IMG/VR virus record: IMGVR_UViG_2778261645_000001 | DNA from: a virus | Taxonomy: Duplodnaviria > Heunggongvirae > Uroviricota > Caudoviricetes | Reading direction: 5' to 3' (one strand) | DNA length: 6,252 nucleotides | In this document: piece by piece, positions 1 through 6,252 of the stretch | Position numbering within the stretch: position 1 is the stretch's first letter | Layout of the letters: each line of letters opens with the position of its first letter | Notes under the pieces: generated by a model | What the model saw: the letters and a program-made list of their open reading frames with translations, nothing else | What the model was told of the DNA's origin: nothing | Database searches by the model: none | Position numbers and translations under genes: made by a program

Positions 1-60
1 GATGATCTGGCAGCCTGAGTTCACAGATAAAACACTCTCCAGGAAACCCGGGGCGGTTCA
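1..60 (+). mobile_element. Right terminus (IRR) of an IS3-family insertion sequence, IS629/IS1203/IS3411-like; the body of the element lies upstream of the window
   Basis: Positions 36-60 (ctccaggaaacccggggcggttca) are the imperfect inverted complement of 6193-6216 (tgaaccgccccggaaatcctggag) at the other end of the window. Ends in the TG...CA dinucleotides typical of IS3-family ends. Matches my recollection of the IS629 right end. GC content is visibly higher than in the flanking cargo. Confidence 0.75.
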
Positions 61-1259
61 GTTAGTGAGTTGTTCCAAGTATTCTTTAAGTTCCCTAACA
101 TCGTCTGCGTAGAGTCCTGAATAGCTTTCCAGCCACCTCTGGAATTAATCTGTGAACCAAGTTCTTTAGCAAACTTAGGGAGTGCATCAGAGGCTTTAAC
201 ATCACCATTTTTCATCTTATCGAAAAGCTGTTTTTCAGTCAGACCTAAAGCCTTTGCAAATGCCTGAGTAGCACCCGGTAAAGCTTCAGATAGTTGCCCC
301 TTAAGCTCTTCAGCCATCACCTGACCCTTAGAAGCCATCTGCGATACTGCGGTTAATGCTCTTTGAATCTGCTCATCTGAACGACCCATTAAACGGGCAT
401 ATCCAGTTAAGTTTTTAAATAATTCCTCTGAGCCTTCAAGACCCATCGTATTTTTTGCAGATGCACCAAATGAAGCAAACTGTGCTTGTGTTTCGGTTGT
501 GTCCATACCAGTAATTTGAGTTAAATCTTGAATGAACTTTTTGACCTGTGTACTTTGGTCACCGAATACGAAATCAATACTTCTTTCCGATGATGCACGT
601 TGAAGGCCAACTTCCATAATCTTCTGATAACTGGCTAATACAGCCTGCATTGAGATAAATGCACCTGCTGTTTTGACTGCTGCCGAAGACAGGTTATCAA
701 GGCTGCTAGCTGCTCTGTCACCATTAATGCTGGTGGATGTATGACCTCTGGCTTTAGCAATTGCTTCTCGTACACTTGAATTTAGTTTAGCAAGGGCTTC
801 ATTAAACTTGGTGTTATCCATCTGACCAGCTTTACTACTTAATGCGTAAAACTGGCTCTTAATGTATTTCTCGACAATTGGGTTAAGACCTTTCAGCTTG
901 GTCATATTAGCTGAATAAGCTGCTGTGATTGCTCTGTTGCCGCTAATTCGTGGCTGTCTCGGTTGTTTTGGAGGATTAATCGCATCATTAACCTGACTTG
1001 TGAAACGGAAAGCTTTAGTATTTTTTGCTCTAGCTTCCAGACGGTCAAAGGTCTTATTAATTTTCCCTTCCATTGACTTCAAAGAACTTGTCAGATTACT
1101 GTCAAGTTGCTTGGTATCGACCTTAAACGCTCTATTCAAATTCCGTTCAATTCTTTGTGCTGATTGCAAAGCTGCCTTTTCAACTCTTTGCAAGCCCTTA
1201 ACAACGTTCTCGCTGAAGCCTAGCTCAACGATAAAACTATCAACTTTAAACTGTGCCAT
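21..1259 (-). CDS. Phage tail tape measure domain protein, N-terminal ~399 codons only; 3' end interrupted by the IS terminus (likely pseudogene or truncated gene)
   Basis: 412-aa ORF with ATG at 1259 and a Shine-Dalgarno-like AGAGGTGA about 11 nt upstream. The segment GLEGSEELFKNLTGYARLMGRSDEQIQRALTAVSQMASKGQVMAEELKGQLSEALPGATQAFAKALGLTEKQLFDKMKNGDVKASDALPKFAKELG resembles the conserved tape-measure domain (TIGR02675/TP901-type core). The last 12 residues (EPPRVSWRVFYL, plus the stop) are translated from IS terminal sequence (21-59), so the native frame is cut at position 60/61. True tape measure proteins are usually much longer than 400 aa. Confidence 0.6.
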   Translation of the reverse strand: MAQFKVDSFIVELGFSENVVKGLQRVEKAALQSAQRIERNLNRAFKVDTKQLDSNLTSSLKSMEGKINKTFDRLEARAKNTKAFRFTSQVNDAINPPKQPRQPRISGNRAITAAYSANMTKLKGLNPIVEKYIKSQFYALSSKAGQMDNTKFNEALAKLNSSVREAIAKARGHTSTSINGDRAASSLDNLSSAAVKTAGAFISMQAVLASYQKIMEVGLQRASSERSIDFVFGDQSTQVKKFIQDLTQITGMDTTETQAQFASFGASAKNTMGLEGSEELFKNLTGYARLMGRSDEQIQRALTAVSQMASKGQVMAEELKGQLSEALPGATQAFAKALGLTEKQLFDKMKNGDVKASDALPKFAKELGSQINSRGGWKAIQDSTQTMLGNLKNTWNNSLTEPPRVSWRVFYL

Positions 1260-3197: not shown

Positions 3198-3318
3198 CAG
3201 ACCTCCTCAATCGCTCTGTAACGAGCTAAACAGTCTTTTTCAGGGGTAGCCTGTAGGGGTGTGCCACATACCCTAAAATAAGATAGTTTTTTGCGTTAGA
3301 ATGCGATTGAGAGCGTCT
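3198..3318. repeat. Copy 1 of a two-copy ~100-120 bp element with conserved inverted termini (repeat A)
   Basis: Shares a ~46-bp left block (cagacctcYtcaatcgctctgtaacgagYtaaac...cagg) and a ~30-bp right block (ttttttgYgtYagaatgcgattgagagcgtct) with 5125-5222; the centre differs. The outer 16 bp of the two blocks are imperfect inverted complements (13 of 16). It lies in the 169-bp spacer between the 69-aa and 109-aa genes. Confidence 0.6.
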
Positions 3319-3345
3319 GAGAGTGGGTAAAACCGTTTTTTGCCT

Positions 3346-3555
3346 TTAGTCTGAGACTATTAACCCCATCTCACTATGAAATTGACTAAACCAGCTTTTT
3401 GTTACTGAGGTTTTTAGTGTGAAAGATGGGGATTGCATAATCAGATAGATGCCATCATTATCAATGTCGCCCCATCCACTATGTACATCAATTAGATTTC
3501 GAAAATATTTAAAGGCTTTGTCTGTTTTAAGTTTGAGGGTGAATACTTTCTTCAT
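3346..3555 (-). CDS. Hypothetical protein (69 aa)
   Basis: ORF track gives 3346..3567 with a TTG start. The ATG at 3555-3553 has GGGGGAAAGA immediately upstream and forms an ATGA start/stop overlap with the upstream 76-aa gene, indicating translational coupling. Confidence 0.55.
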   Translation of the reverse strand: MKKVFTLKLKTDKAFKYFRNLIDVHSGWGDIDNDGIYLIMQSPSFTLKTSVTKSWFSQFHSEMGLIVSD

Positions 3556-4942: not shown

Positions 4943-4971
4943 ATACTAGCAGTTTCAAAGACTAATGTCAA
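4943..4971 (-). promoter_or_regulatory. Near-consensus sigma70 promoter for the leftward small-gene operon
   Basis: On the minus strand: -35 TTGACA (revcomp of 4966-4971), a 17-bp spacer, -10 TAGTAT (revcomp of 4943-4948). Correctly placed upstream of the 185-aa gene start at 4893. Confidence 0.6.
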
Positions 4972-4978
4972 GCATTTT

Positions 4979-5008
4979 TTAACATTTCATTAACATCTGT
5001 GGTATAAT
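4979..5008 (+). promoter_or_regulatory. Rightward promoter with extended -10, divergent from the operon promoter
   Basis: -35 TTAACA (4979-4984), an 18-bp spacer, extended -10 TGgTATAAT (5000-5008). Back to back with the leftward promoter; the two -35 elements are 7 bp apart. Confidence 0.5.
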
Positions 5009-5124: not shown

Positions 5125-5222
5125 CAGACCTCTTCAATCGCTCTGTAACGAGTTAAACGGCCTCTTCAGGTCAACTCATAAGGTCAGGTACTTTTTTGTG
5201 TCAGAATGCGATTGAGAGCGTC
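5125..5222. repeat. Copy 2 of repeat A
   Basis: Same conserved left and right blocks as 3198-3318, with a shorter, divergent centre. Lies about 115 bp downstream of the rightward promoter; its right block ends about 5 nt before the AGGA ribosome-binding site of the 5238 ORF. Confidence 0.6.
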
Positions 5223-5237
5223 TTACAAGGAAAACTA

Positions 5238-5414
5238 ATGGTAAATCTCCCTCCTGAACTGGGGTCACCTGATGTATGGGCTGGTGGAGGTATTGGCCTT
5301 ATTTCAGGTCTGCTGCTTCGTTACGTCCTTGTCAGAGTGCTTGTTGTCTTTAAACTGTTCGGTCGTACATGGACGCTTGACCTTAAGGATAATGACCACA
5401 CAGACCCCCGCTAA
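5238..5414 (+). CDS. Candidate small hydrophobic (single-transmembrane) peptide, 58 aa
   Basis: ATG at 5238 preceded by AGGA with a 7-nt spacer. Product MVNLPPELGSPDVWAGGGIGLISGLLLRYVLVRVLVVFKLFGRTWTLDLKDNDHTDPR has one hydrophobic segment of about 23 residues. ORF track reports it as 5196..5414 from a TTG start. Local GC is higher than the surrounding cargo. A weak CCCC/GGGG hairpin (5429-5452) follows the stop. Confidence 0.3.
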   Translation: MVNLPPELGSPDVWAGGGIGLISGLLLRYVLVRVLVVFKLFGRTWTLDLKDNDHTDPR

Positions 5415-5489
5415 ACCCCCTCCAAAACCCCCTGTACGAGATGGTATAGGGGCATCTTTAGCATTTTGTGCTATCTATTAAAAAATAGC

Positions 5490-5519
5490 TTGACAGAACC
5501 GGAAAGCTGTATCTATCAA
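5490..5519 (+). promoter_or_regulatory. Possible promoter reading into the tandem-repeat region
   Basis: TTGACA (5490-5495), an 18-bp spacer, TATCAA (5514-5519). The -35 is consensus but the -10 is weak, and there is no obvious downstream gene. Confidence 0.25.
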
Positions 5520-5534
5520 GCACTCACCTCTCTG

Positions 5535-5724
5535 ACAGTAATTTCTAAAAGTTCTTATTTTTCAATAAGTTGTAATTAGCCATATATAGAGAACTGACAA
5601 GTCTCTTCACAGAGAACTCTGTAACCTTAACAGTAATTTCTAAAAATGCTTATTTTTCAATAAGTTGTAATCACCCAATATAATAGCTGTTCAGCTTCTT
5701 CACAGGGAAACTTCAGAGGCCTTC
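5535..5724. repeat. Two tandem ~95-bp direct repeats (repeat B), each with a CTTATT-N4-AATAAG hairpin
   Basis: Units start at 5535 and 5630. The first 42 bp are 40/42 identical (acagtaatttctaaaaNtNcttatttttcaataagttgtaat); the remainder is recognisably related but diverged. Embedded inverted repeats at 5554-5569 and 5649-5664. Unit 2 contains a perfect TATAAT at 5679-5684. Confidence 0.65.
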
Positions 5725-5985
5725 TTAACCGCCCCACTAATCGGGAGAAGAGCGATAACCACAGAGAGGGAAGCTCCTTTCTTAACCGACTTCTTAAACA
5801 ATCTTTACAGACCCCGTTCACCAGTCTCAATATTTTATTTCTCGCTCTTCGTTTGTTGCTCGTTTCTATTATTGAGGGGGTTTGAAAAACCTCTGTAAAA
5901 TAACCCTTCCAGTAAAAAGCGAATAACCCCAGAAAGGGGAATCGCCTCTTTAACATTCTCGTAATCAGCACTCTATATGAGAATC

Positions 5986-6192
5986 TTAGCTCAACCTTTG
6001 AACAATCTTGTAAGTGGTGCTTAGAGGCATTCTTAGCGATTCTGCGATGCTCTTGATGGGTTGCCCTTGGTCATACATTTTAATCAACCTGTCAAGCGTC
6101 TGTGCATCGTGTATATGAGGTCTTCCACGTAAACCACCCCTATTAACCACGGCAAGTAAAAGCATTGTGTCACCACAATAGATTGTCTGGGT
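5986..6192 (-). pseudogene. 3' fragment (68 codons plus stop) of a small serine recombinase (resolvase/invertase family), truncated at the IS boundary
   Basis: The minus-strand frame open from 6192 to the stop at 5988-5986 translates to TQTIYCGDTMLLLAVVNRGGLRGRPHIHDAQTLDRLIKMYDQGQPIKSIAESLRMPLSTTYKIVQRLS. The GRP followed by ...G-x-x-I-x-x-I-A-x-x-L-x-x-x-x-S/T-T-x-Y-K pattern matches the C-terminal HTH of resolvases such as gamma-delta, Hin and Gin. The catalytic N-terminal part would have lain where the IS now sits. Not in the ORF track because it has no in-window start. Confidence 0.55.
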
Positions 6193-6252
6193 TGAACCGC
6201 CCCGGAAATCCTGGAGACTAAACTCCCTGAGAAAGAGGTAAACAGGATGACT
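6193..6252 (+). mobile_element. Left terminus (IRL) of a second IS629-like element, including the orfA ribosome-binding site and start codon (ATG 6247-6249)
   Basis: TGAACCGCCCCGGAAATCCTGGAGACTAAACTCCCTGAGAAAGAGGTAAACAGGATGACT matches my recollection of the IS629 left end and orfA start (MT...), with one or two differences. It is the inverted complement of 36-60. Same orientation as the copy at the window start. Confidence 0.75.

Follow-up and report, generated by a model that had tools for sequence, protein, structure and literature searches.

The 6,252-nucleotide stretch of DNA considered here in its entirety (IMG/VR virus record IMGVR_UViG_2778261645_000001; hereafter, the window) contains, at positions 5490-5975, a repeat-filled non-coding region that is conserved in a family of Escherichia coli chromosomal islands and part of which is related to DNA found beside the terminal repeat of Felix O1-like phages (Felixounavirus). 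With a confidence that falls somewhat short of even, we favor a reading in which this region serves as part of a cis-acting DNA hub employed by the island in helper-phage packaging or replication. The island itself has the appearance of a satellite or parasite exploiting virulent Felix O1-like phages, with its dependence on such a helper being something that we infer from the relationships described below. An earlier examination of the window (the sequence-only reading) had described positions 5535-5960 as being reminiscent of iteron-type replication origins, partition or packaging sites, or multi-subsite recombination sites. That portion of this proposal calling for a cis-acting, protein-binding array is supported, given the conservation of the region, the lack of an open reading frame (ORF) and of RNA covariation, the fixed spacing of its 95-bp repeats and the varying copy numbers of these repeats, but the recombination-site portion is not. 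Because part of the region is related to DNA adjoining the Felixounavirus terminal repeat, a role in packaging or replication is favored.

Pattern searches and BLAST together yielded 72 related loci (designated by L numbers) from E. coli genomes, Escherichia albertii, IMG/VR and metagenomes. The two tandem units of about 95 bp that had been noted in the window (5535-5629 and 5630-~5729) are real, with a start-to-start distance of 95, and share 92% identity over their first 48 nt, including 40/42 identical positions over the first 42. Because the second halves of the two units are only loosely alike, Tandem Repeats Finder does not call an array at this position. When the copy number of the unit was compared among relatives, as the sequence-only reading had suggested, one unit was found in 20, two units in 52 and three units in one of 73 places, corresponding to the 72 loci and the window. 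The spacing between units is 95 throughout, with the exception of two intervals of 94. Among 40 distinct two-unit loci, unit 1 is nearly invariant over its entire length, and the second half of the last unit assumes at least three sequence types across loci. A spacing that stays fixed while the sequences diverge in this manner speaks for selection acting on distance, with 95 bp being close to nine helical turns. In the single locus with three units, L031, the small hairpin of unit 2 (GAGAACTGACAAGTCTC) is swapped for its exact reverse complement, the same type of flip as seen at the position corresponding to 5429-5452 in L001. Small palindromic insertions come and go in the repeat region.

Each unit opens with a conserved core, in which the only variable positions are 8, 17-19, 32-33, 43 and 45. 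The consensus sequence recognized by integration host factor (IHF) is WATCAR-N4-TTR, with an A-tract of 4-6 adenines often being present in the other half-site (10.1101/382655). The core is arranged in a comparable manner, with an A4 tract being followed after some 9 nt by TTTCAA-N4-TTG, as in the H'-type IHF site of phage lambda. The same stretch also contains promoter-like hexamers. From its sequence, an IHF-type site overlapping a promoter offers a reasonable description of the core. The invariant block nonetheless extends over 42-48 nt, longer than what an IHF footprint needs, with neither an IHF site nor a promoter alone explaining this length.

In agreement with what had been claimed previously, no convincing ORF is found in the region. 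A 104-aa ORF on the minus strand (5657-5971) is kept in only 2/70 related loci, with the longest ORF found elsewhere among the related loci differing in strand, frame and size. As relatives differ from one another by indels of 95, 49 and 23 nt, any reading frame would be broken. A protein-coding role for 5535-5960 was accordingly rejected, there being no conserved ORF. At the RNA level, no match to the region was detected in Rfam at E values up to 1, nor did ARAGORN detect a tRNA or tmRNA. The consensus fold generated by RNAalifold from 40 distinct sequences is weak (-10 kcal/mol over 232 columns), and compensatory change was seen in none of the 28 predicted consensus pairs, although the limited divergence among these 40 sequences renders such absence of covariation only weak negative evidence. 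The CTTATT-TTTC-AATAAG hairpin described by the sequence-only reading occurs in both units but is weak, with a DNA folding energy of -2.6 kcal/mol, and its structure is not conserved. The 3' arm of the hairpin (core positions 32-34) is among the most variable spots in the core and changes without compensation, so that the hairpin is not the conserved entity. With this uncompensated variation and no covarying pair, a conserved hairpin at either the RNA or the DNA level was rejected. Finally, the region is not a CRISPR (clustered regularly interspaced short palindromic repeats) array, as had been stated earlier, given that only two to three 95-bp units are present, that no spacers are found and that the second halves of the units are mutually related.

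A predicted sigma-70-like promoter, termed P2, lies ahead of the units and points into them. P2, which can alternatively be read with an 18-nt spacer and TATCAA, was recognized directly from the sequence and is absent from the listing obtained in a consensus scan. The P2 stretch is invariant or nearly so in ten loci selected by BLAST, and is conserved to at least 85% per column in 65 distinct loci. Together, P2 and the core comprise the best conserved part of the alignment, standing above the flanking sequence. At the same time, unit 2 contains a perfect TATAAT at 5679-5684, promoter-like sites number 8, as compared to 2.6 in shuffled sequences (an approximately 3-fold excess), and the GC content at 5500-5700 is 30-33%.

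Such observations also bear on a different explanation, which we consider somewhat improbable, in which the region corresponds to a set of tandem promoters or a regulatory leader. Here, P2 and the promoters of the units would drive transcription rightward, yielding an RNA that is non-coding or running antisense into the methyltransferase gene, with either the RNA or the act of transcription regulating an island switch, comparable to the CI RNA of satellite P4 or to transcriptional activation of an origin. The almost invariant TTGACA-17-CTATCA of P2, the invariant (T/C)T(G/A)ACA and TATTTT hexamers of the units, with variable positions falling in the spacer or near the predicted start, and the TATAAT and excess of promoter-like sites described above are all in line with this explanation, as is the fact that G/A variation in the 3' arm of the hairpin is tolerable as G-U pairs only in plus strand RNA. 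Yet, neither a terminator-like site nor a downstream ORF was found, no Rfam match was obtained and the weak consensus fold includes no compensatory pair. Moreover, many invariant positions lie outside the hexamers, such that the 42-48-nt core remains unexplained, as do the fixed 95-bp spacing and the phage-like elements considered next. Transcription of this sort would, however, be compatible with a packaging or replication hub.

Beyond the units, a second pair of repeats of some 40 bp had been reported at 5748-5787 and 5915-5954, along with a GC hairpin (CCCCagaaaGGGG) at 5927-5939. The hairpin was confirmed, as was the repeat pair, the members of which are ~75% identical, with small gaps. 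Because this pair matches phage DNA, the two repeats represent two copies, termed A and B, of a phage-related element. Specifically, window positions 5923-5940 (AATAACCCCAGAAAGGGG) are identical at 18/18 positions to positions 68886-68903 of phage OQ845957, with this match being the best local alignment of window 5911-5975 in the entire 86-kb phage genome (score 38 vs. a mean of 15.3 and a standard deviation of 2.6). Likewise, the equivalents of copy A in L004, L009 and L001 align with OQ845957 68870-68941 over 42-59 nt at 83% identity. In relatives, the match extends to 54-59 nt at 83% identity. When the phage-like element of the relatives was compared to a 2.3-Gb phage collection, an E value of 3e-7 was obtained, with the matches listed corresponding to 85-90-kb Escherichia/Shigella phage records, except for one 147-kb record labelled Staphylococcus phage SA1. 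The element is kept in phages FelixO1, allfine, E9 and OQ845957, where the hairpin appears as CCCC-AGAAA-GGGG or CCC-GAAA-GGG.

The position of this element in the phage genome is of relevance. In OQ845957, a 1.6-kb repeat-dense non-coding region is found at ~68.7-70.35 kb, and those 11-mers of island non-coding DNA that are shared with the phage are 5-9 fold enriched in the bins covering 68-70 kb. Members of the Felixounavirus group were assigned packaging via direct terminal repeats by PhageTerm (PMC11737134; PMC8303462, 581 bp). In the record of phage E9 (PP886229), an exact 580-bp repeat is present at both ends and maps to OQ845957 69145-69713. The shared element lies ~260-280 bp upstream of the start of the terminal repeat in both E9 and OQ845957, and ~260-320 bp upstream in CRP22, assuming a 580-bp repeat in CRP22 as well. 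Further matches of island non-coding DNA to this part of the phage fall within the repeat (OQ845957 69408-69446), at its right boundary (69650-69743; 97 nt at 72%) and just beyond it (69786-69825). The island pieces concerned lie past the IS629 break in this window. One further piece matches intergenic DNA downstream of the phage DNA ligase gene. Hence, the similarity of island non-coding DNA to the terminus region of the putative helper that one would look for in a case of packaging mimicry of the kind seen in P4, SaPIbov5 and the Vibrio PLE is present, in the form of an element beside the repeat. In intact islands, the right arm (L006 2940-5610; L001 13603-14460; L004 10212-11114) holds as much as 2.7 kb in which no ORF exceeds 61 aa. 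It includes internal repeats, stretches that match the Felixounavirus terminal repeat, both within it and at its right boundary, and the piece matching DNA that follows the phage DNA ligase gene.

The relation to Felixounavirus is not confined to non-coding DNA. When the interior of the window was used as a BLAST query against phage genomes, only Felixounavirus was matched, the similarity falling at the beginning of the tape measure gene, where DNA identity is 75-81%. At the protein level, the tape measure N-terminus is 58% identical to its counterpart in OQ845957, and a Dit-like protein is 68-70% identical to the product of the gene next after that for the tape measure protein in the phages (68% in the case of OQ845957). 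The Dit-like and tape measure proteins (L002 2026-2799 and 2963-5095; window 21-1259, minus strand) are thus homologues of the products of consecutive Felixounavirus tail genes. As a separate observation, a small palindromic insertion (CTAATTGGTATTGTTA...TACCAATCC) of 23 or 49 bp is found in some islands and some Felixounavirus genomes and is missing from others, its position being the same in the two groups (L001 ~12680-12730, L004 ~9285-9335, L009 ~3325-3350 and OQ845957 68908-68930). Over 32 nt, it matches phage NBEco004 at 100% identity. Such sharing suggests either that islands and phages continue to exchange DNA or that the mini-palindrome is mobile.

Shorter motifs also recur in the region. 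The CTTAAC-type motif noted previously does indeed recur, with exact plus strand copies at 5626, 5724 and 5781, but the coordinates originally assigned to it were off by up to ~10 nt. Three exact copies compare with 0.26 expected, a number reached in 0/2000 shuffles. Looser copies are found at 5790-5799 (CTTCTTAAAC) and 5945-5954 (CTCTTTAAC), and the region contains a single match to the strict pattern CYTYTTAAC. The 13-bp repeat CCTTCTTAACCGA is present twice in the window, with one copy being degenerate, and in one to four tandem copies across the islands. In a second island type (L006-L010), the spacer that separates copies A and B (5816-5910) is replaced, with only TATTGAGGG..TTTGAAA..CTGTAA being kept. 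In addition, CTCTGTAA(C/A) occurs only on the plus strand, at window positions 3214, 4345, 5141, 5617 and 5891, as compared to 0.18 occurrences expected and with 0/200 shuffles matching this count. The same motif recurs throughout the related islands and is found twice within the 580-bp terminal repeat of phage E9. The features of the region are listed in Table 1.

Table 1. Coordinates of features in and beside the repeat region, numbered from the first position of the window.
Feature	Position	Strand	Description
Promoter P2, sigma-70-like, predicted	5490-5518	+	TTGACA (5490-5495), 17-nt spacer, CTATCA (5513-5518)
95-bp unit 1	5535-5629	+	Conserved 48-nt core, then second half with small hairpin AGAGA-ACTGACAAG-TCTCT and TTCACAG
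Unit 1 core, IHF-like	5544-5576	+	TCTAAAA (A-tract), 9 nt, TTTCAA-TAAG-TTG (5560-5572), TAAT
Promoter-like overlap of unit 1 core	5532-5537 and 5556-5561	+	CTGACA (5532-5537), 18-nt spacer, TATTTT (5556-5561)
95-bp unit 2 (last unit)	5630-5729	+	Same core; divergent second half ending in CCTTCTTAAC
Unit 2 core, IHF-like	5639-5671	+	TCTAAAA, 9 nt, TTTCAA-TAAG-TTG (5655-5667), TAAT
Promoter-like overlap of unit 2 core	5627-5632 and 5651-5656	+	TTAACA (5627-5632), 18-nt spacer, TATTTT (5651-5656)
Phage-like element, copy A	5744-5815	+	GCGATAACCACAGAGAGGGA; hairpin degraded here
12-13-bp repeats after copy A	5777-5788 and 5790-5801	+	TTTCTTAACCGA (5777-5788), CTTCTTAAACAA (5790-5801)
T-rich spacer between copies A and B	5816-5910	+	Promoter-like TTGAGG-18-TAAAAT (5872-5901), CTCTGTAAA (5891-5899)
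Phage-like element, copy B	5911-5975	+	AAGCGAATAACCCCAGAAAGGGGAATCGCCTCTTTAACATTCTCGTAATCAGCACTCTA; hairpin CCCC-AGAAA-GGGG (5927-5939)
Methyltransferase-HTH remnant	5986-6192	minus	Last 68 codons (HTH_7), cut by IS629
IS629/IS1203 copy, terminal portion	6193-6252	.	Inverted partner at 1-60; terminal inverted repeats of the window

Several points weigh against a packaging or replication hub built on IHF-type sites. Most of the loci were gathered using a search pattern derived from the core, meaning that the apparent invariance of those positions is inflated; the ten loci selected by BLAST present the same conservation picture as does the pattern-collected set. The core departs from the IHF consensus at one position (TTTCAA vs. 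WATCAR, with T replacing A at position 2) and differs from the lambda H'-type site not only in this mismatch but also in its overlong invariant block and in two of its four N positions being invariant, with the other two being among the most variable in the core. At the same time, a relaxed IHF pattern (WWTCAA-N4-TTR) is expected to appear 1.6 times per window by chance, and the core fits a sigma-70 promoter ((T/C)T(G/A)ACA-18-TATTTT, with invariant hexamers) equally well. In the phage, the core has no counterpart at up to nine substitutions, with only scattered 11-mers being found, and the strict IHF consensus is absent from the phage non-coding region. Furthermore, the matching phage element lies near the terminal repeat and not at the cut site. 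By eye, the CTTCTTAAC repeats bear a convincing resemblance to the opening 45 nt of the phage terminal repeat, which contain three CTTAAC repeats. This resemblance was also rejected, with the score of 25 falling below the value of 32 that chance matches reach elsewhere in the phage. As the CTTCTTAAC/CTTAAC resemblance is thus not the best phage match, it was not relied upon and is retained as a lead only.

Other points of this kind concern the proteins that would act at the region. No replication initiator (Rep), primase, helicase or small terminase was recognized among the island proteins in Pfam, PHROGs, NCBIfam, PADLOC and PDB sequence and profile searches. Since several of the small island proteins could not be assigned, an initiator may have gone unrecognized. 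The adjacent 185-aa protein has 1072 homologues, all labelled 'hypothetical', and its AlphaFold2 model (predicted local distance difference test score of 53) is too low in confidence for a fold search. Likewise, the DnaA box TTWTNCACA is found nowhere in the window. The same absences speak against an unlikely alternative in which the region is an iteron-type origin, where an island-encoded Rep would bind the 13-bp CCTTCTTAACCGA repeats or the 95-bp units, IHF would bend the DNA and an AT-rich stretch would melt. Direct repeats that vary in copy number, the IHF-like sites, the dip in GC content at 5500-5700, the existence of a circular form of the island and the comparable organization of the origin in the Vibrio elements discussed below are in agreement with an origin of this type. 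In addition to the lack of a recognizable cognate initiator, primase or helicase and of a DnaA box, however, the 13-bp repeat is present in only one or two copies in some islands, a 13-bp period would be unusual for Rep iterons and the relationship detected is to the phage terminal region, not to an established replication site.

The reading of the region as part of a cis-acting hub draws on the nature of the island as well. The interior of the window is 87-95% identical to chromosomal islands that occur in 411-420 of 5426 complete E. coli genomes (~8%), with intact relatives being 11-13 kb long. At least three integration sites were noted, namely, the tonB-yciI interval (L001, L002), a position within yecE, beside yecD (L003), and the wrbA-ymdF interval (L004). 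Gene order is constant across the islands, beginning with a large serine recombinase, the Dit-like 'baseplate' protein and the tape measure protein, continuing with several small proteins of unassigned function, an HNH protein, a 173-185-aa protein and 1.1-3.3 kb without annotated genes, and ending with a Dam-like methyltransferase bearing a C-terminal HTH_7 domain (in some islands only) and a small serine recombinase. A metagenomic contig (L036; 11,233 bp, ~15x coverage) presents a 55-nt terminal overlap, is circularly permuted relative to the chromosomal copies and contains every gene of the set, its integrase being divergent, but no chromosomal flank. Judged by this organization, L036 is a circular form of the island. 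Together with the three integration sites, the circular contig indicates that the island is an active small element.

The window itself is, on the basis of its sequence, a decayed copy of this E. coli island, interrupted by two IS629 elements. Positions 1-60 and 6193-6252 correspond to the ends of two inverted IS629/IS1203 copies, and it is only at these ends that plasmid and Stx-phage records match the window, by the thousands. As the ends of the window are IS629/IS1203, the 25-nt inverted repeat pairing 36-60 with 6193-6217 is the terminal repeat of the insertion sequence itself, such that its consideration as an invertase site was rejected. As a result of the IS629 insertions, the tape measure gene (ORF 21-1259, minus strand) lacks its 3' part, and the methyltransferase-HTH gene, cut at 6193, lacks its 5' part. 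Being broken by two IS629 copies, the site in this island is probably no longer in use.

That a recombinase fragment was thought to adjoin the repeats had led the sequence-only reading to propose that a recombination site be sought here. The ORF in question (5986-6165, minus strand) instead corresponds to the last 68 residues, containing HTH_7, of a 220-aa Dam-like methyltransferase-HTH protein, with the tail encoded in the window being 65% identical to residues 153-220 of the intact protein of L002. It is very improbable that the region is a multi-subsite (res-, att- or hix-like) site for an island serine recombinase. The island does encode two serine recombinases, an HTH_7 domain is encoded beside the region, and IHF-like sites and direct repeats are typical of the accessory arms of some recombination systems. 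Still, the att junction in the L036 circle lies between the integrase and small recombinase genes, at a distance of 1-2 kb and thus more than 1 kb from the repeat units, and no conserved dyad-symmetric crossover site is apparent, the sole inverted repeat of the core being the weak AT hairpin with its freely varying 3' arm. Large serine recombinases act on short, simple att sites without accessory arms, and the island integrase belongs to this family. Nor was any island variant with an inversion or deletion bounded by the units found. Inversion by the small recombinase was also rejected, since what appeared as opposite orientations in some islands reflects different genes.

A further explanation, according to which the region is functionless intergenic DNA that arose via local duplication and contains the debris of phage recombination, can be invoked given that the island copy in the window is already decayed by IS629 and that small palindromic insertions come and go here. 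However, P2 and the core are more conserved than are the flanks, and the units remain 95 bp apart despite the divergence of their second halves. The architecture of the repeat region is, moreover, retained in islands at three chromosomal sites and in E. albertii, so that the repeats are present in relatives, which counts against a functionless duplication. Accordingly, this explanation is considered to be highly improbable.

Elsewhere in the window, a divergent pair of promoter-like sequences is found at 4943-5008, comprising TTGACA-17-TAGTAT, directed leftward, and TTAACA-18-TATAAT, directed rightward. The latter precedes a conserved ORF of 58 aa (5238-5414), the product of which contains a single hydrophobic segment and is labelled 'hypothetical' in relatives. 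This ORF is followed by a hairpin, CCCCTGTAC-N6-GTATAGGGG (5429-5452), the inner part of which is exactly inverted in L001 and L003. In addition, an element of ~104-120 bp with 16-bp terminal inverted repeats (AGACCTCYTCAATCGC ... GCGATTGAGAGCGTCT) is present at both 5125-5228 and 3198-3318. The copy at 5125-5228 is precisely missing from L002, L004, L005, L007 and L008. The copy upstream of the gene encoding a 109-aa protein is found in nearly all of the relatives examined, being undetected in L001, L003 and L009. This element, which has no match in Rfam, has the look of a small palindromic insertion that is mobile, or else of a 5'-leader element.

The arrangement described here can be compared with known systems. 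In lambda cosB, R sites that bind terminase are separated by the IHF site I1 and adjoin the packaging cut site. An IHF-type bend among repeated protein-binding sites is the type of architecture proposed here, yet there is no sequence similarity between the two, lambda generates cohesive ends rather than terminal repeats, and the IHF-like sites of the island are themselves arranged in tandem at 95 bp. Satellite P4 mimics the cos site of phage P2 and contains, in addition to ori, crr, in which two direct repeats of ~120 bp contain short iterons. Both P4 and the present island are E. coli elements of ~11 kb with a long pair of direct repeats containing shorter motifs, and reuse of a packaging signal of the helper, known for P4, is proposed here. 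P4, however, relies on a tyrosine integrase, on a primase-helicase of its own (alpha), by which the iterons are bound, and on a true cos identical to that of P2, none of which was seen in the island.

Closer parallels are offered by PLE, elements of Vibrio cholerae that resemble phage-inducible chromosomal islands. In PLE, a 14-bp identity within 89 bp of similarity to the pac site of phage ICP1 is found beside the origin and is required for transduction (10.1101/2024.04.22.590561), with the origin lying in a non-coding region containing iterons (PMC8263062). PLE and the present island are alike in being small islands that have a large serine recombinase as integrase and are apparently linked to a virulent myovirus, in having a long, repeat-filled non-coding region and in presenting a short exact identity inside a longer stretch of similarity to the helper, here 18 bp in ~55-60 bp. 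The two nonetheless differ in that they share no sequence relationship, in that no RepA-like initiator was recognized in the island considered here and in that the proposed helper group relies on direct terminal repeats for packaging rather than on a headful mechanism. Furthermore, the phage sequence that is matched here is located next to the terminal repeat, and tail genes (tape measure and Dit-like) are present in the island, which is known from sequence alone.

Were the region to act as a packaging or replication hub, events could proceed as follows. Upon phage infection, the island would excise via its large serine integrase to form a circle, whereupon host IHF, or a similar bending protein, would bind the invariant core of each 95-bp unit. 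With the units lying 95 bp, or about nine helical turns, apart, the resulting bends would be in phase. The bent DNA would then join the conserved promoter to the downstream phage-like elements, bringing together the two ATAACCCC-AGAAA-GGGG copies and the 13-bp CCTTCTTAAC repeats. These elements would, in turn, be recognized by proteins of the helper phage (or of the island) that normally act at the phage terminal region, with island DNA subsequently being replicated and/or cut and packaged into helper capsids.

Taken further, it is possible, if on the whole rather doubtful, that the window represents a decayed member of an undescribed family of satellites in E. coli, Shigella and E. albertii that exploit virulent Felix O1-like phages, as a counterpart of the Vibrio PLE. 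In this family, 5490-5975 would serve as a packaging/replication hub in which in-phase IHF bends and copies of helper terminal-region sequence let machinery dedicated to terminal repeats accept a genome of 11-13 kb. A search of the literature yielded no description of the island family or of an E. coli satellite of Felixounavirus, although this does not prove that none exists. Detailed knowledge of satellites of virulent phages comes mainly from the pairing of Vibrio PLE with ICP1. Felix O1-like phages are widely used in Salmonella and E. coli typing and biocontrol, and if such phages are indeed exploited by the island, then there would be consequences for the outcomes of phage therapy and for gene transfer. 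If true, the system would also offer a tractable E. coli model of how a small element comes to be recognized by a packaging system that relies on terminal repeats, with the repeat region, which is short and contains defined motifs and natural copy-number variants, being well suited to such testing.

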